Counted from the first letter of the stretch, positions 1,487 to 63,270 are shown. The stretch is DNA of 64,000 nucleotides from Amphiscolops sp. MND2022 (GCA_964187785.1 OZ076409.1:11844001-11908000), one strand, 5' to 3'. Numbers and translations are program-made. Notes: a model not told the origin generated them from the sequence alone.

Positions 1487-3425
1487 TGTCGCAGGCTGCC
1501 GCCTGTGATGGTACAAGGATCACTACTACCGCAGAAGGACAGGAAATAGCGGCCGGAACTCTACCAATATTTTAGAGGTAAACATTAAAAACACAAACTT
1601 TGCTATTATTTTTTAGTCTACAAGTTGTACCTGTTATCGTTGCAAATTTTACACTTAGTATATAGTTTGCTGATATTAGTCCGTTAATGCCAACATTTGA
1701 AAATTCAGATGATGTATTGATAATTGTAAGAGCTAGAAGTGCAGTATGAACACGCTGTTATAGCAATAGATAGGCAGCTAGAAAGCGTGAAGGAAACGAG
1801 TTCAAGTGAACGTAACTCCAATTCCGGAGACGTCACTTGAGCTCAACCTGTTAGCCAATCATATTCATCCATTTGAGTAATAGTAGTGCTGTAGTTAATT
1901 AATGACCGGTTTAGGCCATATGCCGGAACTTCATCTTTATCTATTGGCGCTTTAGTCAAACGGCCGGTTCCGGCCTTAATGTTCAGATGAAAGAATATTA
2001 GTGCAAGCACTGTTGCGTTTCGTTAAATAGTAGTCTAATCACGTTGCTGTACTAATTAAACGTTCATTTTAGCTAATTGGCGCTTTATTTTATCCATTCC
2101 AATATTAGGCCGAATAAAGCCATTTGCCTGACTTCTATCCTCTGTTGCTGTGACCAATTGGACAGTGGCCGGTTGAGGCCCCTTTTCAATACTATTATTC
2201 AGATGCTAATTACAATCATTTAGTGTACTTTAAATGTCATGTATAGTTACAAGTACGTCGTAAAGACTCATGTAACTCTTGAAATTAATTGATGTAATCA
2301 ATACCAATGTATGATGTTGCTACCAATATTAGTCCAAAGGACATGTCTGACCATATTTACTAGTTGACACGTGGAATCTGTGTGCATATTATATAAAGGA
2401 AAATATGTGCTTTTACATGTAACATTGCTGTATACAAGTTGATCTAGCCTGCTAACGGGGCACGTGCCGACACGAGATTGTCAGCATTCCTGAAATATTA
2501 GCGGCGTAAACATTTTAATCGATGCTATTTGATGTACCGTGTGCCTTTTGAATACTTGTTATAGTTGTCAAAACAGGAATTTGATCGGCCGCGTGACCTT
2601 ACGATCACGATTCGGCGGCACTTTGATGCTTACATAGTCGAGTTAAGTCAGGTGCTTTCGGAATGTGTTTGTAACATTTTTTGGCTGTTTGCATCATGTT
2701 TATCCCGCCCAAGGAAGTATATATAGGGGCAACTTCCTTTGGGTGGACACAATCTTGTTTTGCTCCTAATACTCAGTTGATAACACTTTTCCGTTAACGA
2801 CCACCAATTCTGTTTTCCGGTTCTGATAATTTAACTATTCAACCCGGTTTAGTCTTGATGCCTACTACTAGAAAACAAAAGAAGGCTAGGAAATCTAGAG
2901 GATTGGAAATTCTCTCTGATATTGAAAACCTTGATATAATGTTAGGGGAGAACCATTTTGATGGAACAGAAAGAGACGAAAGTCTCGAAAGGACATCTAT
3001 CAGGAGACAAGAAAGTGTCACTAGCAATAACTTAGAAAATGAAGGACTAGGCCCTTATGCCGATTATGGAAACCATAGGGTCGGGACTAGTGCCATTCAT
3101 GACCAGAATTCAGCAAGTGTAGATTCTCAAGCTGAGATTAACAAACTGTCGAGCGAGTTGAACTCCAGAATATCTAGGGAGATGGATGTGATGATGAATA
3201 GTGTCAGTTCTCAAATCCAAAGAGCTATAAATGATGCCATTTATAACCAGGTTTTACCCCAAATCCAGAACGTTATTATGGCCGGCTCAGGACAGGAGAC
3301 TAGAAGGGGATGGGAGAGATCCGATGAGAGACCGGAAAGTTATTCCGAAGTTCAGCACAACGTGAAAGCTAAAACTACTCTCAACAGTGAACACGGTGAC
3401 AAAAACCACCGTAATGGTCACGACA
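1487..3425 (+). repeat. 5' LTR of element 1 (1939 bp)
   Basis: Direct repeat of 15967-17883 with TGTCG/CGACA inverted termini. By eye it differs by ~17 substitutions and 2 indels (23 bp and 1 bp). Confidence 0.97.
2718..2725 (+). promoter_or_regulatory. Putative LTR TATA box, inside an inverted repeat CCCAAGGAAG...CTTCCTTTGGG
   Basis: TATATATA 140 nt upstream of the gag ATG. Equivalent TATA boxes lie 131 nt (20165) and 147 nt (60600, minus strand) upstream of the gag ATG in elements 2 and 3. Confidence 0.65.
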
Positions 3426-4552
3426 TGGTGACAGGAGACAACGAATCTCCAAATCCAGTTCCTGAGTTTCTCACAGGACGAATCTCATCCAGAAATCATC
3501 TCGACAGGTCCTTTGAGGACATCCACCTCGACACGACGATCCCAGCACAAGAGAGAATCGCTACGGCTGCTGACTCCGACCCCATCACTCGACTGGCAGA
3601 CGTCTTAACTACAATGCAGAATAGACGGACAGCCCAACAACTCACCATACGCCCAGTCAACTCAAATACGATGACATTCGATGGCAAAAGTGAGAAATTC
3701 GAGCTGTTCGAAGACCTATTTCACACTATGATCAAGATGCAGCCAGAAATGACTGAGCAAATGAAGATCAATCACTTCCACTCTTTATTGAGGAAGAATG
3801 CTCTTCAGACGTTCAGAAAGATCAGCTCAAGCAACCGACAAACTCTAGAGGACGTATTAGTCATCTTTAGACGAAAATACGTCAAGCCCGAGTCACAGGC
3901 GACTGCCAAACATAAATGGCACCGTCTAGTCTTCGATCCCAATACGATGAAGCTGCCTGATTTTCTCGAAGAATTGAACCAGGGAGCCGAGAAGGCGCTT
4001 GGCGATCATGCACAGAAAATGATTGACAGCTTGCTCTACGCAAAGCTGCCACCTAAGTTGAAGCGGTCTGTCAACATGGCCAGATTAGAAAATGGCTCAT
4101 ATAATGAAATTGTTGCTCATTTGGAGAGAGAGTTGGAACTCAATGCCCTTGAGGAATCAGATGACCTACCAATGGCCACAATGACCTCCTCGACTACAAA
4201 ATCTAAAACTCCTCTGCCCACTGGGCAAATGTCAGACATTACTTGCAATTACTGCAAGGAAAAAGGCCACATGGTCAAAGACTGCGAAAAACTGAAAAAG
4301 AAAAAAGAGAAAGATGCCCAACAAGGCAAGTCGACGCAGAAGAAAACATACCCCGAGTGTGGCTTTTGTGGCAAAAAGAACCACCCGGAAGAACGATGTT
4401 GGCAAGGTGCTGGTGCACATCTTAAACCCAAACGCACTAGACCTGATGACTCAACTGAAAATAAGCCCAATCCAAAGGCTCAGAAACCTCAGACCAAACC
4501 GACATCATCGAGCTCCCAATCCTCATATCCTAATGATGAGTCAAAAAACTAA
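2858..4552 (+). CDS. gag: Gag (capsid-like region plus two CX2CX4HX4C zinc knuckles), starting inside the 5' LTR
   Basis: Intact ORF with FDGKSEKFELFEDLF, CNYCKEKGHMVKDC and CGFCGKKNHPEERC. Confidence 0.93.
   Translation: MPTTRKQKKARKSRGLEILSDIENLDIMLGENHFDGTERDESLERTSIRRQESVTSNNLENEGLGPYADYGNHRVGTSAIHDQNSASVDSQAEINKLSSELNSRISREMDVMMNSVSSQIQRAINDAIYNQVLPQIQNVIMAGSGQETRRGWERSDERPESYSEVQHNVKAKTTLNSEHGDKNHRNGHDMVTGDNESPNPVPEFLTGRISSRNHLDRSFEDIHLDTTIPAQERIATAADSDPITRLADVLTTMQNRRTAQQLTIRPVNSNTMTFDGKSEKFELFEDLFHTMIKMQPEMTEQMKINHFHSLLRKNALQTFRKISSSNRQTLEDVLVIFRRKYVKPESQATAKHKWHRLVFDPNTMKLPDFLEELNQGAEKALGDHAQKMIDSLLYAKLPPKLKRSVNMARLENGSYNEIVAHLERELELNALEESDDLPMATMTSSTTKSKTPLPTGQMSDITCNYCKEKGHMVKDCEKLKKKKEKDAQQGKSTQKKTYPECGFCGKKNHPEERCWQGAGAHLKPKRTRPDDSTENKPNPKAQKPQTKPTSSSSQSSYPNDESKN
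3426..3438 (+). promoter_or_regulatory. Primer binding site TGGTGACAGGAG
   Basis: Starts with TGG immediately after the LTR terminal CA, and the identical 12-mer occurs at 20674 in element 2. It resembles Leu-tRNA-type PBSs, but the primer identity is not verified. Confidence 0.85.
4543..4549 (+). promoter_or_regulatory. -1 ribosomal frameshift slippery site A-AAA-AAC
   Basis: Sits directly before the gag stop, and the -1 frame is open into pol. The same heptamer is at 21664-21670 in element 2. Confidence 0.85.
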
Positions 4553-7500
4553 CTTCGCCACGACTCCAATATAACGAATTAATATCTGTCCGACATTACA
4601 TCAGATCGGACCCTCAAACGCAAACCTTCCACCAATACAATCAGCAATTGATGGGCTATCCCTCTGTTGTCTGGCAGCAGCAGATGGAAAAAGCTACCAT
4701 CATCACCTACAATAACACCGATTTATTCCAGAAACCAATTCCTGTTTGGGACCCTGATTACACCACTACCTTCACCACCCGCTTCAGGCCCATTCCCCTA
4801 ATCGATGATTACAATCCAACATACATCGATCCAGACTACGGCAGAGATCCCTATCGAGACACCGAGCTTTACAACCAAGATTCACTGCAATTTCAATATG
4901 TCCTGGACGATATTGACTATTACAATAGAACAATCCACGAGAACCCTCCAATTACCCATAGCAAGAAAACACGAGCGCTAATTGAAAACTGGCAAATGAA
5001 TGATGGCACAAACCATCCAGTGTTCCCAAACCCACTGGGGACCGAGAATCCTGAAAACAGTGGTAAAATCACGCCACAATCATTACTAGACGAAAAACAA
5101 TTCCAAAACGTACTCATCACCAGAGAAGGTGAACCAGACTGTATACCCCTGTCAACCAACATCAACCTCAAATGCAAGAAACGCATGCTTTATTTCCCAA
5201 TGGACTTTGGGGAGTTGACCATTGATGGATTAATAGACACTGGAGCACTGTCCAGTGCAATCCCTGAAATGGACCTCCGGAAAATCCGCCTTCTATCTCC
5301 ACAATCTGTTATCCGAGAAGGTCCGCCTCCGAACTTCCAAATCATGGTCGCTAATGGGCAACTGGAAACTCCTAAGAGTACCATAGAGCTCAAATTCGAA
5401 GTTGGTGACATTGAGTTCCATGAAATCTTCATAGTAATGGAACATTTGACAGGACCGATCATTGGACTAAAGTTCCTTCAAAGAAACCATACAGTGCTGG
5501 ACATGAGACAAGGGATATTAAATTTCCCGTTCTTTTCAATGCAGCTCAAAACGGCTGACCATAAGTATTCAAATGTATTAGAACCAATTCTCAACCCTAT
5601 TGAGATAACAATTCCACCAAATGATAAAGTCCTAATTAGGACCAATTCCCTACTCTACCCTGAGAATGCTGTCACTGGAATTTTGCAACCGAGCGACCTT
5701 CTACATGAGGAAGGCGACATCACATTTTGCCCAGCTTTGGTCACTCTGAATGACGGCAATATATTGATACCAGTGAACAATTTCACAGACCACCCTTATA
5801 AACTCAAAAAGGGACTACATATTGCCAATTTCTCTGTCATGACGCCAGAACAGATGAAGTATGTCAAACCGGTAGACCCGGCATCAACCTGGCACCTTTT
5901 GCAGAATGACCAGGAGCAAGCAGCCCATTATGTCAGCAGTCTCATCAAGACCAATAGAAATCCACAAAACTCCGAAAATTATTGGTTCCCAACTCCAGAA
6001 AACCCTGGAAACCCTGAGGAACACACACCTATACAAAAACGAATCCTACGCGAGTTACAGGCCTTACAAGACCTGGAAACACTCGACCCCACTACAGATG
6101 CAGAATCGCGTGCGAAATTCTTAGAAAACTTTGACTGGAAGGACTCCACCCTTACTCCTGAAGAGAAGGAGAAATTTGAGGAATTATTAGTGGAATTCCA
6201 TGACATCTTTGCACGACACCGATTTGATATAGGCATGAACGAGGAATTCAAGGTGAAACTAACGCCTAAGGACGATTCCCTAGCCTATAGTCAAAGCCTC
6301 CCAGCTCCTATCAATCTGAAGGAGGACATCCTAGTCGAATTAGCCATGTTACACAAGTATGGCATCATCACCACCCTACCGTTCTCGAAATATGCATAAT
6401 AACTACAATGCCATTTTCGAAATACGCTAGTCCAATTTTCGCACAAAAGAAGCCGAATGGGAAACTCCGACTCTTGGTTGACTTGAGAAAAATCAACAAC
6501 CTCATCTCGGATGGTTACATCAACAATAATCACCCCGTCAGCACACTAGTTGATGCTGCCCAACACTTGGCAGGCAAAAAACTGTTCTGCAAATTAGACT
6601 GTTCGCAGGCATACCACTGTCTACCAATGGCAGACCAACGTTCAATCGAAATGTTGGCTTTCAATTTTGCCAGTCGCACATTCGCTTACAGACGTTTAGC
6701 ACAAGGCCTTAGCCGGTCACTATCCGCATTCTCGAGTTTCATGAGAGAATACCTTGACAAAGTCATTGAAGCGGATCAGTGTGCCCAGTATGTGGACGAT
6801 ATCGGCATCGCAGCCAACGATGTTGACCACCTCATGACGAACCTGAGAGCTACGTTCAAATGCATCCAGGAAGCAGGCCTTAAGTTAACAATGCACAAAT
6901 GTCACTTCGGTGCAAAAGAAATTGATTTTCTCGGACGGACTATTACCCCACAAGGCGTCAAACCCCAGAAACAGAATGTGCAAAACTTTCTGGAAAAGAC
7001 CAAATTCCCGAAGTCGAAAAAGTCTTTACAGCGATATTTGGGATTCCTAAACTACTACAGGAATTATGTCCCAAGACTCTCCGAACGCCTTGCTCCATTC
7101 TACAAGATGCTCAAAAGTGACGAAAAGGTCCTAGTATCGAAAGAATTAGTCCAACAATTCGAAGAAATCAACAGAGCACTAGACAAATGTTGCGACTTGG
7201 CCCTACAGCAACCCATTCCGAGCAAGCAAATAGCACTAATGACTGATGCAAGTTTTGGTGCAGCCGGGTACGCGGTCCTAATCGAAGACGACCCAAGCCA
7301 GAAATTTACGTCACTCAGAAAATCGTATGCACCGGTCGCATATGGATCAAAAACCTTCACCCCAGCACAGATCAAGATGTCAATTTATGCCAAGGAATTC
7401 CTTTCAATTTTATTTGCATTCAAAGAATTCCGACATATCTTCTGGGGTGCGCCGAAACCGGTCATCATCCTTACGGACAACAAAGCTGTCACGAGATTTT

Positions 7501-9787
7501 TCCAAACAAAAATAATACCCCCAGCCCTGTGGAACGCGTGTGATTTTGTCATTCAGTTCAATTTTGCCATAGCACACATCCCAGGGGCACAAAATACAGC
7601 TGCCGACTATTTGTCCCGATTGGAAGCAGATCCGAAGGGCAAATTGGTGATGAAAATTCGTGAAGACGTACAAACACTACCAATCGAAATCAATGTCCAA
7701 TCCGCAGGGGTGTCACAAGAAGAACAAATCTTCTACACCAATGACGACGACGAGACAGAAGAACAGTTTTGGGCAAAAAAGAAGCAATCAAGAAAAACCC
7801 AGCAACTGATGAGCCCACAGTTACTATACAAACTCTGTCAACAAACCAGGTCAAGCAACACCCCGACATACAAGTCCGATTGAGGAAAACGAACCAGTTC
7901 ATTATTGAGCAATCCAAAGATGCAGTATTACAACAATTGAAGGCAAAACTCCTTCATGAAGATTATTCAGAAAACATACTGCAACAGGATGCCCGATACA
8001 GACACTATGCAAACAATCTGGAACGAATTGTACTAAAAGACGAAATCCTGACAAGGCAATACTTTGATGAAACAGGGAACGTTAAATACCATCAAATTCT
8101 GCTCCCGCAACATTTACTTCAGGAACTGCTTAAGTCTCTCCACGGGACAGCGCATAAGCATCCTGGGATTTCAAAAATGTTGCAGGAAATTAGACAGAAG
8201 TATTACTACCCTAGCATGGCTAAACGCGTCAAAAAGTGGGTAGAAGGGTGCGAACAATGTGCCAGAGACAAAAGACTCCCTAACGCAACGATCACACCTG
8301 AACTGCTCAACTTGCCCGAATGGGACCTTGGACCTGAAGACGCCATGCAAATCGACCTATTGCCGAACCTTCCCCCAAGTGCAGGATATGAAAATGTCCT
8401 AACGGCAATTGATGTATTCTCCAGATATTTGTTCGCCTATCCCCTTACGGACGCATCAGCGATCAATGTAGCAAAAGCGCTCATTGACATCATGACTAAA
8501 CACTCATATCTACCAACGACTCTTATCACTGATAAAGGTACTGCATTTACTTATACAATTATTGCGGAGGTTACGCAGATTTTGGGCATCACACTCAAAT
8601 GTGCAACGACAAAACACCCGCAGACAATTGGGAAATTGGAGCGAACTCATGCCTCATTGAAAACAAATCTCAAAATGGCATGTGGGGAATATCGCCGACA
8701 ATGGCACAAATACTTGCCATTAGCAGTACTGAATCATAATACTATTTATCACGCCAGCATCGGGTGTGAACCGACGAGAGTATTTCACGGAAGAATTCCA
8801 TTCAATATACTGGATCACAAGCTTAGAAATAATCCAAACGAGCAGATCAACCCCACAACCGAATTTGCTGAAGAAATCCTAAACCGGACAAAAATCATGA
8901 TTGACAAAACGAAGCAAAACATTATGCAGTCGTATATCAAATACAAAGAATATTATGACCGCAAAGCAAAAGCCGCTCCACTAAAGGAGCACGAATACTG
9001 TTTTGTCCTACAGCCGAAAGCGGATAATCAAGGATCAAAAATTCCCTTCCGCGATTACCGTTGGGTTGGACCATTTGTAGTCCAAAAAGTTTTGCCAAAT
9101 GAAAACTATATAGTACGACGCATCAACACAAACAAAACTCAAATTTTACATCGGATTCGCCTTAAGAAGTTTGTCCCCAATCAACCGCTTGAAGACAATT
9201 TCCGTGAACAACGGTTACAGCCAGATGAAGAAATCGTCATTCCGCAAGATGATTTATATATCATAACGTGGGAAACCGACTTTGGCGAACAGCTAGTTAC
9301 ACGAGGAAGCGAGACTATTCCGACTAGCACGCCGAATGGCGAACGGCCGAATCCGGCAGAAACGAATACAAATGACGTAACCGAGAATGAAGCGGATTAC
9401 ATAATCACGCGAGAAGTAACGAACAACGGCAATGCAGCGCACAGCCGGAATGACCACTTAAGCGATGACGTCACTGAAAGAAATGAATCTACTGCAATCA
9501 CAGAAAATGAAGATTCTGACTGGCCGAATCCGGCCGTTTCCCCAAAAAACCAAGAAAAATCATTGCCGAATACGGCCGATAGACCGGAACCCGATGAAAA
9601 TTTTTCAGAAAGAAACTACTTGACGAATGAAAACCATACACAAAATTCTCCAAATAGGGGGGATGATATTATCGTGCCCGAAATATCTGAAAACGATGCT
9701 AGAAATGAAAACCTGAACCCTAGAGGAGGAAAATATAACCTCAGGCCTAACCCCAACCCAAACTACTCAGAAGACTTCAGATACTAA
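4549..9787 (+). pseudogene. pol: Pol (protease, dUTPase-like segment, RT, RNase H, integrase with GPF motif) with two frame disruptions (~6395 and ~7775)
   Basis: LIDTGA; YVDD; TDAS...TDNK...ADYLSR; LHGTAHKH...CEQC; QID/TDKG/LER catalytic triad region; WVGPF. Split over ORFs 4648-6399, 6408-7883 and 7769-9787. Confidence 0.95.
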
Positions 9788-10012
9788 GAATTGAATTTCT
9801 TCCCGAAAATGGGAATTCTCTTCTTTTCATTCTTTTTATCTTTTTTTGCCCCTCAGAGAATCTTTTACAATAAATAATTGGGGCATTACAAGTGATCCCT
9901 TACAAAGAAATAAATATGGGATCAAGGCAACAAAGAACAAAACGAAAATAAATACGAAACAGAAAATGAACAAGAGATACACTTTACAAGTACATAAATA
10001 CATATGTACACA

Positions 10013-13000
10013 TTAGTTCTTAGAAGATCCCTGGACAAGTTTCTTGGAGGCGGACGAGATAGTGGAACTACTGCTGCCCATTCTTTTCCGTTGGGTCCGG
10101 GAAGGAAACTTTACGGCAAGAGTCATCCGGCACGGAAGAGGCAGTTCCTTTCCCCAGACGAACAGCCCGAGTGGGGGAAACAGCAGTGACGGCCTTATAG
10201 GAGGCAAGAAGGCTCTTGTAGATCTTGGACCTACCGAACTCATCCACAAAGGTCCATGGATCGTAATCAGGGGAGAAAGCGGAACGCTCGAAGGAAGAAC
10301 TGAATTGGCATCAGAGCAACAATACGAAATGGAATCAGGCACGCAAGAAAGGTAACTCTGACAGGGCACTACCAGGTCAGCAAAACGGCCTCGGTGTCCA
10401 AAAGTGTCAACACTCCCAAAAGATACTGGAGGATATTGGGGACTTTGACCTGTCAAACACAAGCAGCACAGCTTGAAGAGATGGAAAATGTGCTCATGAG
10501 TTTGAAAAAACTCGAGCCGCATCAGGAAGTCTATGAGGTCACTGGAATTTTCCTTGAAATCAAAATCTGGAGGATAATTGACTCGCAGGTGATCCAACAA
10601 AGCCAAATACTCATCTCGACAGATGTTCTCATTCTCACTGGAGACCCAAGAACGAAGCTGAAAGGTCGAGTGTAGCACCTCAAAATGCCGGAGTCCGACC
10701 TCAGTCGGCCTCTTGAAAAGGACAAAAGGGTCAAAGGCGGCCAACCCCTTGATCACCTCGGAACTCAGGCCGGCTTGGTTGAGGACCTGCTTGATCAGGT
10801 ACTGAATGAAGTGCAGTCCCTCTTTGATAAAACTGCTAGTTGTTTCTGCAGCTGTCTTATCAATGGCGGCCTTCTCGGATTTTTTGTTCAGATGAACAAC
10901 ATCAGCACACTGTTTGCTGGCAGTAGCTATCCGATTTGTCAATCGGTGCCGGATAAGGAAATCTTCCTCACTGATGAACTTTCCTTCGCTCACGTCGAAA
11001 TTAAGGAGAAGGAACCACGAATTCTCGAGAGGGATGGTTTCTGGCAAGTAGCATCTGGCGCATAGCTTGGAGACGAAACGACAGACTTCTCCACAGAGGA
11101 AAAATGACGCATCTCGTCGGCCTTGCAGATTGACAACGAAACTGGAAACATCTGGAAATACAACGGACAAGATCATGAAAGGAACAAAATGTTCACGTGA
11201 ACCCATGACAATATGCCTACTATGCTAGTAGCCCAAAGAATCAAGGACCGTCCAGATAATGCCCTAAAGTATCGATATGGACATGTAGCGGTATACTCAC
11301 AATCACTGATTATGCGTTGGAAGAGTTTCAACTTGACGACGAAGAAAGAGTCGCAGCTGAGAGACCACTCGAAACTCTGCACTTGATTGTGGACCCCCTG
11401 CATTCCTTGATGTGGAGTGTGTGATGTCAAGTACTGCCTGACTGCCTTCCAATGTTTTACGAGTTCCCGGCAGAGGTTGGGTAAATTCGGCAAGTCCAGT
11501 TTGCAAGTATCAATGGCCTAAACGAACCCAAATTGTCTTTTGCCCGTACCTACCCCCTAACCCTTTGCGCCTTATGTTTGAACTTAATATACTAACTTGT
11601 GCTAGCTCAGGGGATTGCAGGACCCAGTCCTCGCCAGTAGCTGCTCCAAGTGAAACCATGAGGCATTTCAGAACAGAGAAGAAGTCTATTCTGCCAAACA
11701 CACTGTAAGTTGGCTTGTGCATCATCTTCTGGAGCTGCAGGTGCTCGAAGCGAAAGCAACTCTGGACAGAGGGAACCAGAGGGAAGAAAGCATTATGGTC
11801 GATAGTCTGGATCAGCTCCACTGGACATCCTGAGCAAGCAACTATATCGGCCTTGGTGGACACTACTGAGAGAAGTCGGGAAAGAGACCCCAGCTCCCCA
11901 GTGAGATCAGAGGAAGGAAGCCCACTCCGGCACACGTAGATTCGACAGAGAGTGTCGCCCTTCCAGAATTTGACAGACATGAGTCTGTTCACGCCCTCAT
12001 CCTCAAACTCGATGGCAAAGTGCTGTGTGGTAGCCATCTGCTCCGCTAAATCATTCATTGCACAATTGAAAATGTGCTGGAAGATGGCCTGGAAAGGAAA
12101 AGGAGGATTACGAAATGTGTGGAGGGCTTTAGCCTCCCTCAAGCAGTACGCAAACTCAAAAGAGAACTTACCGAAATTCTTTCCTCGCCCCAATCGAAGT
12201 CGCAGTAGCTGATCTGGTAATTGGTCAAAGAGCCTATTTGAGACCACAATTTGCGGAGCATTCCAATATCTCCAAGTTGTTGTACGAAGTTCCCGATGAG
12301 ATGGATCTGCGTCTTGGCCCTTGATTCAGGGGTGACAAGTGTGGTTGACGTACCTTTTATGAAATCATCATGAAAAGGGAAGCGTTCTCCGATGTCCACC
12401 AGCTCGACGTGCATGAAGTGGCGCATCTCCTTTGCCAACTCTATCTCTGAAAGGATCTTCCCATTACGGCCTCTCACTCGATGTTGCACTTTTCCGGACA
12501 CGGAGTGGACGCTTTTAAGGTGCTCGTAGCGCCATCTTTGATCCCGTCGGAGGTGCTTCTCAGTCCTGTGGTGTCGCAAGATTTCTAAAGTCCCCTTAGT
12601 TTTCACGGAGATATTCTTTTTGCATATATGGCACCACACCATATATGGATTGTGAAGGGGATCTGCTGGTCCGGAAATGAATGAGCGCGTCCAACCGATC
12701 TTAGAGAAGAACTCCTCTCTCATAGGGACACCTCGAGTCTGCTTGCGTCGCTTCCTTTTGGGCGCTTTACCCGAACTTGAAGCCAAAGGCGGGGCGGGAG
12801 AAGTTTGAGTCCGCAACTCAGAAAGAGTGGCATCAAGGCTTGACTGCTCCGCAGATTCAAAGCCTGCTTGGGAGGGATCGACTTGTGTAGTTTTGCGGGA
12901 AGTTGAAGCAGGTCTGAAAGGCTCCTTGAAGGCCTGTGAGATGAGAGCCATCTCCCCAGAACTATCAGTATCGTTGGAGGAGTCCAGCCCTCTGTCTTCT

Positions 13001-14383
13001 TGCCCTGAACTTGATCCAGCAGACGTATCGGTTCCCGATTCAGGAAAATTCTCAGAGCGTGAGCTGTCTTCAGAATCGCTATGCAGACCAGGTCCTGGAG
13101 TTTGGGCTCTTGGCCTGACTCGGAAATGATCAGTTCGGGAACTGGAAGTGACCGGCGCTCCGCGAACTGCCCCAATCACCATCTGTTCCATGGCAGTAAA
13201 GGACATTTTCAACGTCTCATCAGTAAGAACTCTCAAAAGATGATATACTTGTGGCTCAGTAAAAGCCACTGTTCTATGGCCGAGAGGGAAATTGATGGTG
13301 GTAGCATCCTCATCAAAGTACTGTTTTAAAATGGCCCGGCTGCGGCCGGAGAGCTCCGTGACTTTGGAATCTTGCCCTGCAGGCGTTGACGTTGACGGAC
13401 GCATGATATCGGGACGATGGATAGAAGTATCAACTGATGATTCTCCTGCAGTTTCAGTCACATTTCCTACTGGCTGGAAATTGTATAGGGCAGGTCCACT
13501 TGCCTGGCTGGATGTGTCACCGGCTTCCTCAGTCCCAGTCACGTCGTCCAAATATATCACATTCGTGACTCCCGTTGGCAGTTTGGGGGCATCACATACA
13601 GAGGAACTCTCATCAGTCTCATGCTGAAGGAATGACGCTGCTGACACGTTGGCAGAAGTTCCGCAAGTTGTCAACAACTCTGGCAATGCCGTCAGAGAGG
13701 AGGGAGCAATCGTTAGACCGGCTTCTAGTTGTGTTAAATTCAGCCCTGCAGACTCACTGGGCAAGTTCTTGGTTGGAGTGCTAGTTTGGAAAAACAATGT
13801 ATGATTTTGGGGTTCAATCCCAGCAGCAGACGGACCTTCAGTGGCACTCTCTTCAATCTCCTGTTCCCTGATTTCGGAACCCTTGGCAACTTGTCCCTCT
13901 TCCTGTTCCTGGGCTTGTTCAAGAAACAGAACTTTCTCATCCGCATACGCAGTAACGTCAACGTTACTGTCAGGACTGCCAGGCGACCTCGGAGGTCTTG
14001 TTGGTGGGAAGGGTGGAGGCGATGGTTGCGGCCTACGGACAACGTTGGACACTCCTGCAGAAGTAGTAGTCAGGACACGCTCGCTGGGAATATCTGCTGA
14101 TGTGTTGGCTTGGGCTTGAGGATCATCTCCTGGCTGATTTGCTAAACAAAAACAGATGAAATTTGGCGGTGAGCTTCCTTGAAAGAAATCCATTTCACCG
14201 CATTAGAAAACTTCCGGAAGTGCTTGAAAATTTGAATGGAAACGTTATCACGTGTTCATTGACGGAAACAGGAAGCATTTTGTGAACAAATTTAACCCTG
14301 ATCAAGTTAGATTTTTCAAAGATCTAGATTTAGATCAAGATTTAGTTCAAAAATAAAACAAACCAACCTTCAGACGAAGACAT
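10013..14383 (-). CDS. Antisense five-exon accessory gene, 1277 aa model: low-complexity N-terminus, BED-type zinc finger and hAT-transposase-like body. Exons 14383-14368, 14141-12172, 12088-11597, 11517-11301, 11151-10013
   Basis: Four GT-AG introns (donors GTTGGT, GTAAGT, GTTAGT, GTGAGT) are phase-compatible, and the exons total 3834 nt with no internal stop. Zinc finger W...WCHICKK...LRHHRTEKH. Confidence 0.8.
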
Positions 14384-15272
14384 TCTGGGGCAAGACTGAT
14401 TGTAGGGAATGAGTCCTTGTTCGGCTGTAATGGATAAGGGAACTTGGCCGAGTCCGGCTGAAGAAGGAGATCCGGGATATTCCAAAGAGAAGAGCTGACG
14501 GAAGAAGAGCTGGACGTACAAGGATGAATCTCAGTTGGAAGAATACAAATGAAAGAAACAAATGTAGAGTAATCAGAAATGGAATTGGATTGGAATTTTA
14601 ATGTAAGAGAATTGAAGAGTTGGAGTTCGTGGCTGAAGAATATTACCAGACTAATATTATGGATTATCTACATATTGATTCTGTACATGGAGTCTGCCAG
14701 CGAAGTGTACAAAGAACTTTGTTATTTACAGCTTATTTAGTTTGAGGCCGGTTATGGTCGTTTGCCCTGTTTTGTTTTGCCGTTCCGTTCAGTTGTCTTA
14801 GTTACCTTTTAGTTAGAATTTTCGCCATCTTGGATTACTTGGATTTATTATTTTCGCCATTTTTATTATTTAATTTTGCAATTTATCGAAGCTTAAAGCT
14901 GATTGGCTGAAGCCATTTTGAAAGAATTCCGCGTCGCGTGCCGTTAAGCGCTCTCAGGCAAACTGTTAATTACCCACTTGAAACGGGTGAAGATAATATT
15001 TACAACTCAAGCGTCATTAACACCTCTCAGAGTGATGGTGCTGATAGGGGGTAAACACTGAGTTATCAAAGGATGCCGACTAATTATAAAATTCCATTCA
15101 GGAATGTTAACGTCGGATCAGGGCGATTTACCGATAACTCGACCGCCAAAAACGAATTGCCGGGAAAAAGCCCGAGTCGACTAAATTTTTGAGTTGGTAA
15201 ATTCATTCCACTTTGAAATCTCACTCAAGCTAGTTAACTTTCCCAATCAGCAAAATTGCTAAGAAACTCATA

Positions 15273-16055
15273 ATGCAGAGGTATAACCTAACTAAAAAGC
15301 TCTTTGATCTTGAAGAAGACTCAGAAAGTTCAGTGGATTCAGTTATCTACATCTCAAGTGACAGTGAGAATGAAGTCTCAAGTTCCTGGGACTCAGACTG
15401 GTCCACGGATACAGAAGAGATCATAGAAAGAATAGAACGAGAGGTGAAAGCAGCTCCAATCCCTATAGCGAGACGCGGGATGACGACGGAAGATTTAGAC
15501 GACGAGATGACAGCTGGACCAAGCAGTGCATGGCCTGTTCCGCCCTCTACCCCTAAACTGGGATTCGAGTATTTTAACAAGGAAATGTGCTTGGCTCCAT
15601 CGAAAAAACAAAGAAAATCAAAAGTCGAGCTCTGTGCAACTGTTACCCGTTCTGCAGTCCCCACAGTCTCCTCCCGACCATGAAAGGGGACCGAGCATTG
15701 ACACCCCTCTTGCGCAGTCAACCTCTGGATCTTTCTATGCGTCCTATCATGTGCAAAATATCGAGCCTTACCAGGATGTGAGCCAAAATTTGCACACAGG
15801 CTGTATGGTATGTGGCAAGTCGAGAGATCAAATAAAAGCAGAAAAGGTGAACTGGTACATGCAAAGATCGACACCTAGCAGTAAGCCGCTTATATTACCG
15901 CTCTACGACGAGAGGCTTATGAAAATGGCTTGAACGCAGGAAGCTTACTTTTCCTAACACCCGCAGTGTCGCAGGCTGCCGCCTGTGATGGTACAAGGAT
16001 CACTACTACCGCAGAAGGACAGGAAATAGCGGCCGGAACTCTACCAATATATTAG
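15273..16055 (+). pseudogene. Sense accessory ORF of unknown function (acidic Ser-rich N-terminus, CMVC motif), two frameshifts, ending 89 nt inside the 3' LTR
   Basis: The C-terminus AYITALRREAYENGLNAGSLLFLTPAVSQAAACDGTRITTTAEGQEIAAGTLPIY* is conserved at protein level in the copies at 62020-62150 (-) and 57547-57635 (+). Confidence 0.75.
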
Positions 16056-17883
16056 AGGTAAACATTAAAAACACAAACTTTGCTATTATTTTTTAGTCTA
16101 CAAGTTGTACCTGTTATCGTTGCAAATTTTACACTTAGTATATAGTTTGCTGATATTAGTCCGTTAATGCCAACATTTGAAAATTCAGATGATGTATTGA
16201 TAATTGTAAGAGCTAGAAGTGCAGTATGAACACGCTGTTATAGCAATAGATAGGCAGCTAGAAAGCGTAAAGGAAACGAGTTCAAGTGAACGTAACTCCA
16301 ATTCCGGAGACGTCACTTGAGCTCAACCTGTTAGCCAATCATATTCATCCATTTGAGTAATAGTAGTGCTGTATTTAATTAATGGCCGGTTTAGGCCATA
16401 TGCCGGAATTTCATCTTTATCTATTGGCGCTTTAGTCAAACGGCCGGTTCCGGCCTTAATGTTCAGATGAAAGAATATTAGTGCAAGCACTGTTGCGTTT
16501 CGTTAAATAGTAGTCTAATCACGTTGCTGTACTAATTAAACGTTCATTTTAGCTAATTGGCGCTTTATTTTATCCATTCCAATATTAGGCCGAATAAAGC
16601 CATTTGCCTGACTTCTATCCAGTGGCCGGTTAAGGCCCCTTTTCAATACTATTATTCAGATGCTAATTAGAATCATTTAGTGTACTTTAAATGTCATGTA
16701 TAGTTACAAGTACGTCGTAAAGACTCATGTAACTCTTGAAATTAATTGATGTAATCAATACCAATGTATGATGTTGCTACCAATATTAGTTCAAAGGACA
16801 TGTCTGACCATATTTACTAGTTGACACGTGGAATCTGTGTGCATATTATATAAAGGAAAATATGTGCTGTTACATGTAACATTGCTGTATACAAGTTGAT
16901 CTAGCCTGCTAACGGGGCACGTGCCGACACGAGATTGTCAGCATTCCTGAAATATTAGCGGCGTAAACATTTTAATCGATGCTATTTGATGTACCGTGTG
17001 CCTTTTTGAATACTTGTTATAGTTGTCAAAACAGGAATTTGATCGGCCGCGTGACCTTACGATCACGATTCGGCGGCACTTTGATGCTTACATAGTCGAG
17101 TTAAGTCAGGTGCTTTCGGAATGTGTTTGTAACATTTTTTGGCTGTTTGCATCATGTTTATCCCGCCCAAGGAAGTATATATAGGGGCAACTTCCTTTGG
17201 GTGGACACAATCTTGTTTTGCTCCTAATACTCAGTTGATAACACTTTTCCGTTAACGACCACCAATTCTGTTTTCCGGTTCTGATAATTTAACTATTCAA
17301 CCCGGTTTAGTCTTGATGCCTACTACTAGAAAACAAAAGAAGGCTGGGAAATCTAGAGGATTGGAAATTCTCTCTGATATTGAAAACCTTGATATAATGT
17401 TAGGAGAGAACCATTTTGATGGAACAGAAAGAGACGAAAGTCTCGAAAGGACACCTATCAGGAGACAAGAAAGTGTCACTAGCAATAACTTAGAAAATGA
17501 AGGACTAGGCCCTTATGCCGATTATGGAAACCATAGGGTCGGGACTAGTGCCATTCATGACCAGAATTCAGCAAGTGTAGATTCTCAAGCTGAGATTAAC
17601 AAACTGTCGAGCGAGTTGAACTCCAGAATATCTAGGGAGATGGATGAGATGATGAATAGTGTCAGTTCTCAAATCCAAAGTGCTATAAATGATGCCATTT
17701 ATAACCAGGTTTTACCCCAAATCCAGGACGTTATTATGGACGGCTCAGGACAGGAGACTAGAAGGGGATGGGAGAGATCCGATGAGAGACCGGAAAGTTA
17801 TTCCGAAGTTCAGCACAACGTGAAAGCTAAAACTACTCTCAACAGTGAACACGGTGACAAAAACCACCGTAATGTTCACGACA
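15967..17883 (+). repeat. 3' LTR of element 1 (1917 bp), carrying a second copy of the gag N-terminus (ORF 17316-17963)
   Basis: Direct repeat of 1487-3425. Confidence 0.97.
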
Positions 17884-18149
17884 GTTTGGTACATGACTTA
17901 TTGTTGGAAAATAATTACCGTAGAACATGTTTAAAGCTTGAGGCTTCTACGTTTTTTTGCTAGCAAAGCTTTTCATTTGATCATCTTCTGTTTCTGTTGC
18001 AGAGAGGTAAAATGATAATCTCATTAAAATCTGGATATCATTCATTATCCGAGATAAAAATAAATTGTTTTTGAATGGCCTCATTGATTCCCTAACCTAG
18101 GATAAGAGACATAGCAGGGCAACAATCGAACTCTGTACCATTTTTGCAG

Positions 18150-18759: not shown

Positions 18760-20673
18760 TGTCACGACCTGCACCGGTCGTAATTTTACTTGCTGCTCTG
18801 GAAAACCGGGATTCGGCAGAGGACACGGACAAGGGCAGAGTAAATACTTTTAAACTTTGTTAAACTAATCCAATTCTACTTACAGTACAGCTAAATAAGT
18901 GCGAATAATTTTCCAAATACAGAATTCAACGTAAGCGTTACGGAAGATTTTCAGAAATGACTTTAAACTAGCTAAAACTTCCGGTCTAATGTTTTCACAC
19001 GCAACACCGTTTTAGTTCCGGTTTTATCTTCTGAGTTTTCCATTCCAATCTAAATACTAAAACAAAAACATTTTTGCAAACGGGATAATTTTGGCGCTCC
19101 ACACTAAAAAGAAAGCACAGAAACGACATTTAACTCCGAGATCCCAACGGAGTCCATAAGATCTAAAATGAAAGAGCATACAAAAATAGAGTGGAAATGT
19201 ATTCCAATATTGAAGTAGTTGTTAAATATCCACTTAAAACCGCAGTCAAGTGATTTTAAGTAAAAGTTTACAACGTTATGACAGCGTCACTCAACTAGGC
19301 TAGCAACAGGTGTTTCTATTTTTACGGACCAATAGCGTCGCTCGCTGGCGGAATTATCTGAGCTCAATCCAATAGAATTGCGCTTGGTTGCCCCTAGCAA
19401 CGCTTACAAGCTAAGAAAAGAGAATAGAATCGCCTACGCTCTCCGTTTTCATTCGCCTGCTATTGCTGCTCAACTATAACCAATCTTAATACGTACGGAG
19501 CGCTTACGGAGCGGATTGTAAAATTGTATTCCGCCGCTCAGCTATAAGCAATCTTAATACATACGGAACGCATTCGGAGCAAATTGTAAAAACAGCAATT
19601 ATGAAGTATTGTTCTAAACAGAATTTAAACGGGGTTTTTCTGCATTGACGCATTTTAATGGTTTCAGGAATAACTTTGCATAAGATTTTTACAAATAAGT
19701 ATTTTTGTCGTTTCAAGATGTGTAACAGTGGTTCTAAGGTGTTCTAGTGAAATTCTTTCAGCATCATTTATCCTCTCTAATAACTAGATATTTCCATTAT
19801 CCAAAATTCATAATTCCGTTTCATTTCCGTCGTCATTTTTGAGTGTCATTCTTTTGCTTCGGATCTCAATTTCCTAACTTGAATGCTGACTAATTGATCA
19901 CGCCGGCGTGCCTACGCTGATGAAGATGTCAGCTAGACTTCTATTTTGCCGCAATTTTGAAGCTCAAACAGGAAAAATGAGGATTATCTGAACAAAAATG
20001 ATTTCAACAAAGTTTTACGGAATAGTGACGCAACTAGGAGTCTCGATACCTGAATTTATGACGCCGAGTTGAAATAAGTTGAATCCTTAGCGCTTTTTGT
20101 TGAACAAACCCGATTTTATGATACCTAGGAATTTTTAGGTGAGGAACAAATGATGCTGGGAAGGTATAAATATGTAAAACAAACCTGTTTTGTACCAATT
20201 AGTCCTGTTCCGTTATCGTAACGTGTTCAAAAGAAAACTTAAATCTTTGAAGAATTCAACCTTTCCAAAGATACTTTCTCTCTCTTTTGACTAAAATGAC
20301 AACCAGAAGTCAGAAAAGGAAAGCTGTAGCTGAGCTATTCTCTGGTGATTTTGAAACCTCCGTAAACGAAAACTCCCCGTCTGAAAGCCTTGTAGCTAGT
20401 TCTAGCAAAGTTCCTAGAATAGAACCTGAGAGTCTGACTGAGATAAAAACTCTCTAAGGAAGGAGATTATGTCTGATCTAACTAAAATACTTGCGGAAAA
20501 CCAAAAGGAAATGCTTAAACTGATAGCACTTTTAAACAAGAAACAAACTGTCTACATGAATGCTCAAGACTCGGACTCTGAACCAGAGAATGTCTCCGTA
20601 GCAAGGACGTTTACCCCCGTCAAAATTCATACTGCGACTAACTCTAAAACAACACCGATAAACAGTCGTAACA
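18760..20673 (+). repeat. Putative 5' LTR of element 2 (1914 bp)
   Basis: TGTCACGAC...GTCGTAACA inverted termini (8/9 match), followed by the PBS. Length is similar to the element 1 LTR, but no second copy confirms the left end. Confidence 0.75.
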
Positions 20674-21673
20674 TGGTGACAGGAGTCCTCAATGACTCTA
20701 CCAACCAACCCACGAAAAGATCAAAACAACAGCGCGCATCCAACGAGCAAACAAAAGACCGTCCTTCAACATCTAAAATACTGTTCGCGCCACAACCTCA
20801 AACATTTCCATCTACCAATCTACTTCCGATGCCGAAAGCACACACTGCTTCGCTTCCAGTCTTTTATGGTAAGTCCGAAAAGTTTGAACTTTTTGAGGAC
20901 ATATTCCGAAATAATATCAAAATGTATCCTCACCTAACCGAGATACAAAAGATCAACTACTTCCACTCACTCCTACGAGGAAACGCGCTGCAAGCGTATT
21001 GCAAGAAGTCATAACGGCATTCAAACGTCGTTATGGCGATTTCCAATCATCTGGTAAGGCAAGATGCGAGTGGGACGCGCTGCATTTTGACCCCACTAAA
21101 CAGAAACTCCATGAGTTCCTTGACACCCTGCAAAAAACTGCAAAAGAAGCATTCGGCTTAGAAGCACAAATGTTTATCGATAAAGCAATCTACGCCAAAA
21201 TGCCGGATCACGTCAAGAAAATCCTCAACAGAGCATAATTGGAAGATAACCCCTACAATGACATAGTTTTGCATCTTGAGAGGGAAATGAGATTAAACGG
21301 ACTAGGTGCGCCCGACGAAACAACCCTAGTCCCACTCAACACAGTGGACGCAGTAGTGACGGACGATAAAAAAGACCAACAACAACGAGGTCATTGCTTT
21401 CACTGTGGCAAATATGGCCACTATAAAGCACAGGGTCGCAGACTCCAACGAGAGCGTTACAATATCGCCAAAACAAACACAAAAGACCCAGCCCAAAACG
21501 AAGCACCCAAACCCAAGTGTGACACATGTTGCAAGATGCACAAAACTGAGAACTGTTGGAACGGAGCCAATGCGGCAAATGACCCCGGAAGGAAGAAACG
21601 AGAATTCACGATTCCAACCAACAAAATCAGTGAACAACCTGTACCCAGACTGTCCTCCCAGCCAAAAAACTGA
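20296..21673 (+). pseudogene. gag: gag of element 2 (frameshifted), starting inside the LTR
   Basis: MTTRSQKRK start; FYGKSEKFELFEDIF is homologous to element 1; CFHCGKYGH knuckle. Confidence 0.88.
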
Positions 21674-27192: not shown

Positions 27193-27392
27193 NNNNNNNN
27201 NNNNNNNNNNNNNNNNNNNNNNNNNNNNNNNNNNNNNNNNNNNNNNNNNNNNNNNNNNNNNNNNNNNNNNNNNNNNNNNNNNNNNNNNNNNNNNNNNNNN
27301 NNNNNNNNNNNNNNNNNNNNNNNNNNNNNNNNNNNNNNNNNNNNNNNNNNNNNNNNNNNNNNNNNNNNNNNNNNNNNNNNNNNNNNNNNNNN
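27193..27392. other. Assembly gap (200 N)
   Basis: Run of N. Confidence 1.
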
Positions 27393-56684: not shown

Positions 56685-57546
56685 CGATCCAATCGGCCAT
56701 TTCTAACATTTGCTCATCCTTGGTTCTACTTCAACCGAATTGTGAAACTGGCTGGAATGCTTGTATATTCGGACTCATAGCATCTTGCCTCGTTTTGAAA
56801 ACTAGTCGCAACTATTATAGTTTTGCACAAGATAATCTGCAAAGATGAGATTTTCAGTTTCTTATCATTACCTTGAAACACAACTGTAAACGTTGGAAAA
56901 CAAGCTGTCTGGGTCAATGAAACTAAATTTGTTACCATTGGCCTTCAGAGATAACCAGAGTCAAAACAAGAACGGCATGAGTCAGCCCTCCGCTCAAGAG
57001 AAAGCATAAAGTATTTCGAAACGTTTACAGCATCTCAGTGCCGAGAAAAGCTGAGATGAGGACCCTTTGGGTGGAAACGAATTTTTTTCTAACTGAAACT
57101 ATTTTAAAAACCAAAATGACACTCCTTTTGGGAATTTGAAACAATGAAAAAGATCGCATAATGCCGAAAAACCAAGCACTTTTGATAAGTATCCTTCTCT
57201 TGGATACTTTTTTGTTTTGAATTGGCACTTAAGTTTTGTGAATTGCTTGTTGTATTTTCAAGATATTCAATTATATCATGTCACATTCCCCCCTCTGGGA
57301 AGATTTGATGATGTAGGGTATTCAGTAGTAAAAGCTCCGTATATTACAGTTGACACCGTGTTTGTTGATAATGTGTCTTGTTTTCCTGTAATAAATCATG
57401 GTTAGGTTTTGTTTTGACTTTCCTTGACTTTCGTATTGATACAATCAGTGCAGTTGGTGTTTGACCGTAATTTATCCCTGTTTCGGGGGAAAGATTGGTT
57501 TCCTTTGGATGGAAATGTGGTTCATCCTCGCGTTGGTGTGGAGTGC

Positions 57547-58310
57547 TGTCGCAGGCTGCCGCCTGTGATGGCAGTCTGATAACCACTACAACCAGCGGAC
57601 AAGAAGTGGCTTCAGGAACGCTACCAACTTTTTAGAAGTAAACTTCTAGTCCATAGAAACTTTTTCCATTTTATAACCCTGTTCAATCATTTATTTTCCT
57701 ATACATATTCAGGATATTAGTCTGTAAACTGTTGCTCGAAAGCGCTGGTTTAGTTTTGTAGGCAATGTAAATTAAAGTGTGTTAGAATACAAGCAGTCAA
57801 AGTAATGTACGTAACAAAGGAAACGAGTTCAAATGCTAAAACGTCCCGTTCCGGTGACGTTGCTCGCTCTAGCATTATTGGCCAATCATAGTGCAGTATA
57901 GATAGTATTGATTCTCAGCAGTACATTAATTGGACGGATATGGCCGTTTCACTATAATGCGCTTTTCTCATACTAGACTTTAGGCAAATGGCCTGTTCAG
58001 GCCATTCAGCTAATTATTGTTTGTCATGTTATGAATGAAGTATATTTTAATAGTTCGAAGTCATGCATCTCTATATTTATATTTGAGGACACTAATAAGC
58101 CTCTTGGGATTAATTAGTGTAATAACAAGGACTAGCTGCAATAATCCAAATACCCGTCACCAGTCCTATTCTGGCCTCTGCTACTGGCCAGCACCCATGT
58201 CCAATAGCAGTACCGGGCGCATTGCTATACTCCTTTATATTGCATGAAACTGTGCCGTTGTTTTGTTGGTTCCACATAAGTGTGTATGTGTTGCCTGTGG
58301 CAAGTGTTGA
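57547..58310 (+). repeat. 3'-truncated LTR of the element 1/3 family
   Basis: Starts TGTCGCAGGCTGCCGCCTGTGATGG, identical to 1487, and shares blocks with both the element 1 and element 3 LTRs. The right end is approximate. Confidence 0.85.
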
Positions 58311-62038: not shown

Positions 62039-63054
62039 CTGCGGGTGGAATAAATAAAAACGACCCTGCATTAAGTCCATTCAATTAAGCTTCCTTCATA
62101 ATTGCTGTCACGTAGGCCGGCTCACCTCTTGGTGTTGATCTCCTTATCACTCCCGTCATCAGAATAGGTGTGAACAATGCTCAAGTTGTTAATATCAAAT
62201 ACACTCGTCTCAAGTGGGTAATTAACGAGTCGCTTGGAGGCAATTAACGGCACGCACCAAAGGTTTCTCTTAAAATGGTTTTAGCCAATCAAAATTGACT
62301 TTCGATAAAATGGAAATTGGATAGTAAAATGGTGAAAATAATAACTAAAATAATCCAGAATGCGGAAATTCTAACTAAATGGTAATAAGGGCAACGGAAC
62401 AAAACGGCAAAACGGAACAAGGTAAATGGCCATAATCGGCTTCTAACTAACTAATTTGTAAATAATGAGCAATCTTCTGTACATTTCGCTGGCAGACTCC
62501 ATGCACAGTTTTAAATTCGTAAATAGCCATAAAATATTAACCCGGTAATCTCTTCAGCCACGAACTCGAACTTTCAATCTCTAGGATTGTCATTTATTCC
62601 CATTTAGTTCCAATTCCATTACGATTTGTATTCTTTTAATTTTGAATTCTTTCGGCATCCCTATCTATGTACTGCATTGTTATGTACGTCCATTTGGGTT
62701 CCAACACAGTTGCCGACTACATCTTCCTCGGAGTATTCCGGGGCATCATCCCCTTTTCAGCCGAGCTCGGCCACTTTCCCTAACTTCACCAGCCGAATGA
62801 GGACGGTTACCCAGAAGGAGTTTCCATCACTGCAGGATGTCTTCAAACACAAGTTGATCTGGATTTTTATTTTGAACTAATTTAACTTGATCAGGGTTAA
62901 AATTTGTTCACAAAATGCTTCCTGCTTCCATCACTAAACACGTGATAACACGTTTCATTCAAATTTTTAGAACACTTTCGAAAGGTTTCTGACGCGGCAA
63001 AATGGATTTCTTTCAAGGAAGCTAACCGCCAAATTTCATCTCTTTCTGTTTATA

Positions 63055-63270
63055 GAATCAGAACAAAGAGACTACTCGAACACCAGATCCCAATTCACCC
63101 GTGGGTACAGGTTATGCTGTTGTGTTTTCACCGCCCCTGTTTCCTCCTCTTAGAGTAGAGAGGTCCCCAAGTAGTACTGACAGTGTTGATATTACAGCTT
63201 ACGCTGACGAAAAGGTCAGACTCCATGCAGAGGCTCAATTGCTAGAAGGGTCACAGGTCGCTGAATCATT
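63055..63270 (+). pseudogene. Remnant of exon 2 of the antisense accessory gene in element 3
   Basis: FPPLRVERSPSSTDSVDITAYADEKV matches FPPTRPPRSPGSPDSNVDVTAYADEKV. It is preceded by a CTAAC branch site and pyrimidine tract ending TATAG. Confidence 0.8.

Follow-up and report, generated by a model that had tools for sequence, protein, structure and literature searches.

Extra genes on the antisense strand have been described in Ty3/Gypsy retrotransposons of plants and fungi. In the plant elements, antisense open reading frames (ORFs) termed aORF-3R lie between pol and the 3′ long terminal repeat (LTR), as in maize Grande (gene23), rice RIRE2, Silene Retand (ORF4) and Phaseolus PvRetro13, while the Boty-like Ty3/Gypsy elements of Botrytis and Sclerotinia carry the antisense gene brtn (PMC7264820, in the part drawn on here, citing Zhao et al. 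2011 for brtn). According to the same part of that review, the function of these plant and fungal ORFs is still not known, Retand ORF4 carries a transposase_28 domain, which makes it a precedent for transposase-like antisense cargo, and an antisense promoter resides in the 3′ LTR of human T-lymphotropic virus (HTLV); the word "intron" does not occur in its text (PMC7264820). Animal LTR retrotransposons also carry additional genes: those of bdelloid rotifers have varied ORF3 cargo downstream of pol, some of it enzymatic, expressed from spliced messages like env and encoding env-like, GDSL lipase, DEDDy exonuclease, coiled-coil and transmembrane products, none of them a zinc-finger protein among those named in the consulted part of the paper, where "intron" and "opposite" are absent and "antisense" appears once, for small RNAs (PMC5408684). 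In the full-text literature searched, a limited library, we found no animal LTR retrotransposon described as carrying a spliced antisense gene. The gene analyzed here lies on the minus strand of a 64,000-nucleotide stretch of the genome of Amphiscolops sp. MND2022 (GCA_964187785.1, OZ076409.1:11844001–11908000; hereafter the window), in a complete 16.4-kb Ty3/Gypsy element (element 1), with the integrase on one side and the 3′ LTR on the other.

We consider, with a probability of about 0.75, that this antisense gene is a family-wide accessory gene of a metazoan Ty3/Gypsy lineage, placed backward between the integrase and the 3′ LTR. The gene moves with the element, keeps its exon-intron structure across copies and lineages, and is under purifying selection as a protein. 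On the minus strand between 14383 and 10013, four stretches are free of stops, three long ones of 687, 271 and 403 codons and a shorter one of 114. Joined as five exons (Table 1), they amount to 3834 nt, that is 1277 codons plus the terminal stop, beginning with MSSSE and free of internal stops. All four introns have GT at the 5′ end and, behind a pyrimidine-rich tract, AG at the 3′ end; their phases are 1, 0, 0 and 1. An earlier interpretation made from the DNA of the window only (hereafter the sequence-only reading) had proposed this spliced frame, and joining the exons reproduced it in every detail. On sequence comparison, the gene is confirmed as a real five-exon gene with a structure far beyond chance, because the same exon structure recurs in 18 sister copies and in a lineage (L048) that lacks detectable DNA similarity to the window, because the frame is under purifying selection, and because exon-3 homologues from unrelated public assemblies lose similarity at the exon-3 borders. 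Chance ORFs and an assembly artefact were also considered as readings of the gene and were rejected. Intron 1 is the least secure of the four; in L048 the first Met is contiguous with exon 2.

The host element has the hallmarks of Ty3/Gypsy: a pair of LTRs with inverted ends, the order gag, protease, reverse transcriptase (RT), RNase H and integrase, and 5-bp target duplications. The antisense gene occupies 14383–10013 between the end of the integrase frame (9787) and the start of the 3′ LTR (15967). Duplications and LTR ends were read from six whole sister copies fetched from the genome. Three of the four copies with readable ends have 5-bp duplications outside the LTRs (ACTGG, CAAAT and GTGAG in sister copies c10, c13a and c3), the window copy has none (ACTGA versus GTTTG), and two copies are unreadable at one end. 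Across the copies compared, the LTR pairs are 97.9–99.7% identical, which marks the insertions as young. The frame of gag opens about 630 nt inside the 5′ LTR and has its first ATG at 2860; as a consequence, the same frame is repeated in the 3′ LTR (17256–17963). Another in-frame gag ATG spans the junction between the LTR and the TGG directly after it (3425–3427).

LTR elements replicate through a sense-strand RNA. Introns of a gene in antisense orientation read CT..AC on that RNA and are not spliced out of it, and because they escape splicing in this way they survive reverse transcription.

A genome search with the 4.4-kb gene region scored 34 matches, spread over many chromosomes, of 2803 first-look candidates, figures that are not copy numbers. 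Seven full-length matches beyond the window show 93–98% identity, and about two dozen more, at 88–91%, form a second subfamily. All seven full-length copies, which lie on other chromosomes, are co-linear with the window from the integrase end to just before the 3′ LTR. Together with the second subfamily, they bear out the proposal of the sequence-only reading that the gene is a feature of the family and not a one-off insertion; a sister family without the gene also exists and is treated below. Since co-linear copies have target duplications of their own, the gene moves by retrotransposition as part of the element. Introns 2–4 keep GT..AG in 17 of the 18 sister copies, the remaining one (L008) having two mutated sites.

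Between the two subfamilies, the ratio of nonsynonymous to synonymous divergence (dN/dS, Nei-Gojobori) is 0.09–0.11 over residues ~470–1175, about 700 codons, and 0.22–0.29 for the N-terminal half, with dS of 0.26–0.61. The control values, obtained for the window against one subfamily-2 copy, are 0.03–0.05 for gag, protease, RT-RNase H and the integrase core, and 0.40 for the integrase tail. The core of the antisense protein is thus, by these sequence estimates, constrained within a factor of about 2–3 of pol. Selection on the protein and conservation of the intron positions, two checks of the gene that had been set out, are both borne out.

Among 50%-identity cluster representatives of public assemblies, exon 5 has 354 relatives at E ≤ 0.001, down to 27% identity, of which 205 reach E ≤ 1e-10. 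Relatives of the finger region of exon 2 number 230, and those of exon 3 number 168. Aligned, the exon-3 relatives lose similarity exactly at the exon ends, which read ...FQ|AIFQH (acceptor) and ...EL..|VS (donor). None of the best 120 of the 230 exon-2 relatives, and none of the best 120 of the 168 exon-3 relatives, carries a name or a precomputed Pfam domain; annotation pipelines will therefore mask the gene or miscall it as four separate ORFs.

Diverged copies in the same genome were found with the protein of a distant homologue, a query matching the last exon; it scored 108 matches of 7804 first-look candidates, in several groups, 100 of the 108 being stop-free. The lineage L048 is one of these. 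Introns 2, 3 and 4 each have a GT..AG counterpart at the same position in L048, and an extra 83-nt GT..AG intron interrupts its exon-4 equivalent (L048:4411–4494, on the gene's strand), which implies intron gain or loss between the lineages. The gene of L048 ends about 245 bp from a plus-strand frame terminating in ...GKYNLRPNP..., like the integrase tail of the window (tblastn E 6e-7), and the tail-to-tail arrangement with pol is therefore old. A run of ~88-nt tandem repeats occupies the pol-frame tail at L048:800–1560.

The predicted product has about 1280 residues. Its first 470 consist of 41% Ser, Thr, Pro and Glu, against 25% in the remainder, and a basic patch at residues 467–472 resembles a nuclear localisation signal. 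The single zinc finger follows. In the alignment of this region (A4), all 22 sequences share C83, H100 and H106, and at least 90% have C80; the pattern, C-x2-C...H-x5-H, is BED-like, with aromatic residues preceding it. The S/T/P/E-rich N terminus and the C2H2 finger that the sequence-only reading took for BED-type were thus both recovered, by composition count and by alignment. Exon 5 was modelled with AlphaFold2, the only part so treated, and from a 42-sequence alignment it gave an all-helical domain with a predicted local distance difference test score (pLDDT) above 90 over residues ~10–233 of the exon, followed by a disordered tail; a run without an alignment gave a pLDDT of 36.7. A homodimer prediction on the helical domain, in which the alignment was not used, gave no verdict (score 0.00). 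A feature search of the Atlas with exon 3 reached a top score of 0.76, with nothing usable, and a search for longer annotated gene models with exon 5 came back empty, which is weak evidence. Within the low-complexity N-terminal half, exon 2 holds a conserved block of about 90 residues (~230–330) with the A4 consensus LSGR.RAILK.YF...TVAFTEPQ.YHLLRVLTDETLRMS, for which Pfam gave no match.

We propose that the antisense gene would be transcribed from its own putative promoter in ~14384–15025 and then spliced. The resulting protein would comprise a disordered S/T/P/E-rich half, the basic patch, one C2H2 finger and a conserved globular half ending in helices; the patch would direct nuclear import and the finger would bind nucleic acid. 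The most likely role of the protein would be in the nucleus and in trans, binding nucleic acid as a cofactor or regulator in the transcription or integration of the element. Under this proposal, the sister family without the gene can multiply because the protein acts in trans. Extra genes of this kind show that retrotransposons have needs beyond gag and pol. The present one is abundant, with thousands of first-look candidates in the genome and 354 protein clusters in public assemblies, and the gene-less sister family offers a natural comparison with and without it.

Several observations weigh against an accessory gene that serves the element. Just 7 of 19 copies retain an undamaged spliced frame between exon 2 and the stop: three of eight in subfamily 1 (window, L003 and L006) and four of eleven in subfamily 2 (L025, L030, L031 and L032), while L027 is open to the end of the extracted stretch, where no stop is reached. 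Within one subfamily pair, the antisense-gene core has a lower dS (0.26–0.39) than gag and pol (0.53–0.93), and exchange or recombination between the subfamilies, or constraint on the sense RNA, may bias dN/dS. A motif scan of the window copy detected neither a TATA box upstream of the gene nor an AATAAA in the 500 bp of minus strand beyond its stop; its promoter, splicing and start codon are what we infer from the DNA. Searched with the four window pieces, Pfam returned nothing at E ≤ 1 except one chance match, sequence searches of the PDB with single pieces and with profiles A1, A3 and A4 gave nothing but one chance match (E 0.92), and Foldseek with the exon-5 model had no match at E ≤ 0.001 in the PDB or in BFVD (viral). 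Because none of these searches gave anything significant, no function can be read from homology.

The window copy itself is damaged near the end of the gene. It differs from all six sisters compared by four indels: exon 3 holds 6 additional bases, which keep the frame, 7 nt are missing from intron 4 and 19 nt near 10304, and a single base is inserted near 10119. As a result of the last two, residues ~1180–1242 (about 62 codons) are in a frame other than the family's, a further point on the negative side. The conserved tail motif YDPW..VD.FG is absent from the window's spliced frame and found in another frame (ORF 10068–10310), and the tail has a dN of 0.52 against the sisters because it is out of the family frame. 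The tail frame of the window is open by luck, and the last part of this copy is probably non-functional.

As to the origin of the protein, the sequence-only reading held that it derives from a hAT transposase. In this explanation, an exapted, catalytically dead transposase was captured by the Gypsy lineage, keeping its BED finger and dimerisation region and losing the D-D-E residues of a supposed catalytic part at about residues 540–900. We regard it as doubtful. The finger does fit the BED pattern, and the protein shares with hAT, Hermes, ZBED, FAM200 and GTF2IRD2 proteins the order of a BED-like C2H2 finger, a long conserved region and a helical end. The genome is rich in hAT elements, with 150 scored matches over the cut-off. 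In the Atlas, the clusters nearest to exon 5 are FAM200-GTF2IRD2-like (0.87) and Dimer_Tnp_hAT-carrying (0.86), and the best hhalign placements are co-linear with hAT, the finger falling on the BED finger (0.37%) and YDPW on the start of the dimerisation region (0.09%). Every one of these signals, however, lies below the noise marks of the tools themselves, Atlas scores under 0.9 being leads only.

The direct comparisons are negative. As controls, we used six long hAT frames of the same genome, all of which match Dimer_Tnp_hAT at E ≤ 1e-14, some also matching zf-BED or DUF659. Pfam zf-BED, DUF659, DUF4371 and Dimer_Tnp_hAT were found in none of the four window pieces; hAT-related families were likewise absent from 42 of 42 exon-5 relatives (PF05699 at E ≤ 0.1), from the L048 versions and from seven distant relatives, and zf-BED (PF02892) had no match at E ≤ 1 in the window pieces or the diverged lineage. 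The best relatives of exons 2 and 3, devoid of precomputed domains as described above, add to this. Compared profile to profile with six hAT transposases, exon 5 reached a probability of 0.3%, exon 3 one of 4.6%, on a stretch without relevance, and the finger region one of 0.37%; hhalign gave 0.09% for the full-length family profile and 0.08% against a deeper C-terminal hAT profile. Hence, no C-terminal hAT dimerisation domain (PF05699) was detected, and the PDB search with the exon-5 model, as reported above, had no match at E ≤ 0.001. The sequence-only reading had placed FAIEFEDEG, IVACSGCP and HIFHLFKLCCLCL at the catalytic and dimerisation positions of hAT, and no alignment reproduced that assignment. 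Unlike a hAT element, the gene yielded no placement of D-D-E residues, is surrounded by no credible terminal inverted repeats and no 8-bp duplication, and is moved by reverse transcription in an element that makes 5-bp duplications. Were the protein transposase-derived, one transposon class would be reusing the protein of another.

A composite of the two ideas, in which an old animal Ty3/Gypsy lineage would be defined by the large antisense gene, using a nuclease-dead hAT-like DNA-binding module in trans and parasitised by gene-less relatives, seems to us improbable. If true, it would mean that one class of mobile element domesticates a protein of another, the gene-less relatives being akin to non-autonomous elements.

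The protein might also be of no help to the element, repressing competitors or surviving as a tolerated remnant, with the gene-less family having shed a dispensable load. Element 3, a gene-less relative, lies at the window's end in reverse orientation. Its 64000–63430 matches the integrase end at 9220–9790 and, 369 bp on, 63061–62166 matches 14134–15025 at 71% and is followed by the LTR start. The homology that the sequence-only reading had noticed here covers exon 1 with intron 1, the region upstream of them and no more than 8 bases at the start of exon 2; it fails for the gene body, the rest of exons 2–5 being absent. The 3′ part of intron 1 (14143–14320 versus 63052–62871 in element 3) is 87% identical, against 71–76% for its flanks, and may be a conserved non-coding signal. 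Because the window differs far more from gene-bearing lineages than from element 3, we read element 3 as a deletion derivative, which seems the simpler reading. The gene-less junction, represented in the window by 62800–63600, was found in 40 of 40 scored genome matches (of 2910 first-look candidates) at 97–100% identity, so a family without the gene body has multiplied recently, and its copies look younger than the gene-bearing ones (88–98%). By this comparison, the gene is not required in cis, which leaves supply in trans or dispensability.

The success of the gene-less copies could equally mean that the gene is dispensable or costly, which counts against a helper role, as does the low number of copies with an intact frame. 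A tolerated remnant, however, would not be expected to show a dN/dS of ~0.1 between subfamilies, nor to survive in lineages diverged beyond DNA recognition. The data also accommodate a role against competitors, which fares the same as a helper role on present evidence. Taken as a whole, a protein without benefit to the element strikes us as rather unlikely.

It is very unlikely that the functional product is the antisense RNA, for example as double-stranded RNA formed with the genomic RNA, and the long frame incidental. Non-coding antisense transcripts of retroelements are known and regulation by double-stranded RNA has been proposed for antisense ORFs, as stated in the part of the review drawn on (PMC7264820), and the present gene is known from its sequence. 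A role in RNA alone nevertheless predicts no constraint such as that measured over the ~700 codons of the core, and the frame is maintained through four introns, with the Cys and His residues of the finger invariant and relatives recognizable at the protein level down to 27% identity.

Finally, that a DNA transposon or host gene is nested in this one copy, as cargo of the locus and not of the family, is extremely improbable: the higher G+C content over 10–14 kb (0.48–0.50 versus 0.41–0.44 over gag-pol), the missing gene body of element 3 and the unmatched target duplication of the window copy would suit it, but all seven other full-length copies carry the gene at the matching position, three of the copies having 5-bp duplications of their own outside the LTRs, it recurs in the second subfamily and, as judged by the pol tail, in the deeply diverged lineage, exon 1, intron 1 and the upstream region are common to the gene-less relative, and the best pair of flanking inverted repeats (24 nt at 75% complementarity, one of 42 in 5.6 kb) is at chance level. 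The differing flanks and target duplications likewise argue against segmental duplication of a single locus.

The family-wide antisense gene is not the only addition to the element. A second frame, on the sense strand, has 274 codons from stop to stop, of which about 86 nt reach into the LTR. It is complete in sister copy L012 (5332–6153) and in subfamily-2 copy L021 (2556–3377), at 60% amino-acid identity, and split into the overlapping parts 15234–15683 and 15511–15933 in the window copy; Pfam gave no match for it. A weak match to the LTR-start part of this frame at 57507–57632 may be another LTR. Elsewhere in the window, a direct repeat of ~400 bp with 87% identity (3–403 and 1074–1486) immediately precedes the element, part of a different Gypsy-type element (20442–24592, with a DUF1759 gag piece, protease and RT) is ~71% identical to element 1 over the RT, and a satellite array with a period of 1354–1356 bp and at least 6 units at 96–100% identity spans 27393–35312, preceded by a 200-N gap (27193–27392).

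Table 1. Coordinates, in the window, of the Ty3/Gypsy element, its antisense gene and associated features.
Feature	Position	Strand	Remarks
5′ LTR	1487..3425	+	1939 bp; ends TGTCG...CGACA; TGG directly after
gag frame	2798..4552	+	Pfam DUF1759, zf-CCHC; opens inside the LTR
Protease frame	4540..6399	+	Pfam gag-asp_proteas
Reverse transcriptase and RNase H frame	6291..7883	+	Pfam RVT_1, RT_RNaseH, RT_RNaseH_2
Integrase frame, long acidic tail	7745..9787	+	Pfam Integrase_H2C2, rve
Exon 5	10013..11151	-	Helical C-terminal domain and tail
Exon-5 stretch out of family frame	10119..10304	-	Flanking indels versus 6/6 sister copies
Intron 4	11152..11300	-	149 nt, phase 1; kept in 18/18 sister copies; same position in L048
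Exon 4	11301..11517	-	Homologue in L048, there split by the extra 83-nt GT..AG intron
Intron 3	11518..11596	-	79 nt, phase 0; GT..AG in 17/18 sister copies; same position in L048
Exon 3	11597..12088	-	Best-conserved block; supposed catalytic region of the sequence-only reading
Intron 2	12089..12171	-	83 nt, phase 0; GT..AG in 17/18 sister copies; same position in L048
Exon 2	12172..14141	-	S/T/P/E-rich N-terminal half, basic patch, zinc finger, conserved region behind the finger
Zinc finger C-x2-C-x16-H(H)-x5-H	12553..12633	-	Residues 509–535, inside exon 2
Intron 1	14142..14367	-	226 nt, phase 1; GT..AG in 9/9 copies reaching that far
Exon 1, coding part	14368..14383	-	ATG and 13 nt; ATG kept in 9/9 copies reaching that far
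Upstream region of the antisense gene	14384..15025	-	71% match to element 3; putative promoter
Second accessory frame	15234..16052	+	Between the upstream region of the antisense gene and the 3′ LTR; broken in the window copy
3′ LTR	15967..17883	+	97.9% identical to the 5′ LTR (self-comparison)
Element 3, homologous part	62166..63061	-	Gene body absent beyond 8 bases of exon 2; upstream region, exon 1 and intron 1 present

Among known systems, HBZ of HTLV-1 is a spliced, protein-coding minus-strand transcript of a vertebrate retrovirus, and its product is a nuclear regulator, a small basic leucine zipper protein. It is transcribed from the 3′ LTR, whereas the putative promoter of the Amphiscolops gene is internal to the element, on the upstream side of the 3′ LTR, and the two proteins appear unrelated in size and motifs. 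The bdelloid elements resemble the present one, as far as the consulted part of their description goes, as animal LTR retrotransposons that acquired extra genes downstream of pol (PMC5408684). In brtn, the likeness extends to an additional opposite-strand gene between pol and the 3′ LTR of a Gypsy element, in fungal hosts (PMC7264820, same part). Closest are the plant aORF-3R, which, in the text of that review drawn on here, share with the Amphiscolops gene the position between pol and the 3′ LTR, the opposite orientation and a suspected nuclear function, and which are present in most copies of a family with a conservation comparable to that of the element's own proteins; an upstream promoter of their own has been shown for Grande and is presumed here (PMC7264820). 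The corresponding distribution in Amphiscolops is that of a gene found in all seven full-length copies and about two dozen subfamily-2 copies, alongside the gene-less family. The transposase_28 domain of Retand is not among the Pfam matches of the window pieces at E ≤ 1. Unlike the plant ORFs, the gene has an animal host, as wnt genes in its genome show, and encodes a much larger protein of ~1280 residues from five exons, accompanied by a second, sense-strand extra frame. A search of the same genome for MHC class I had no match, which carries little weight because the control matched nowhere either. From its sequence, the locus thus appears to have the same architecture as the antisense ORFs of plants and fungi, and what seems new is its occurrence in an animal, the large multi-exon product, the gene-less sister family and the second sense frame.

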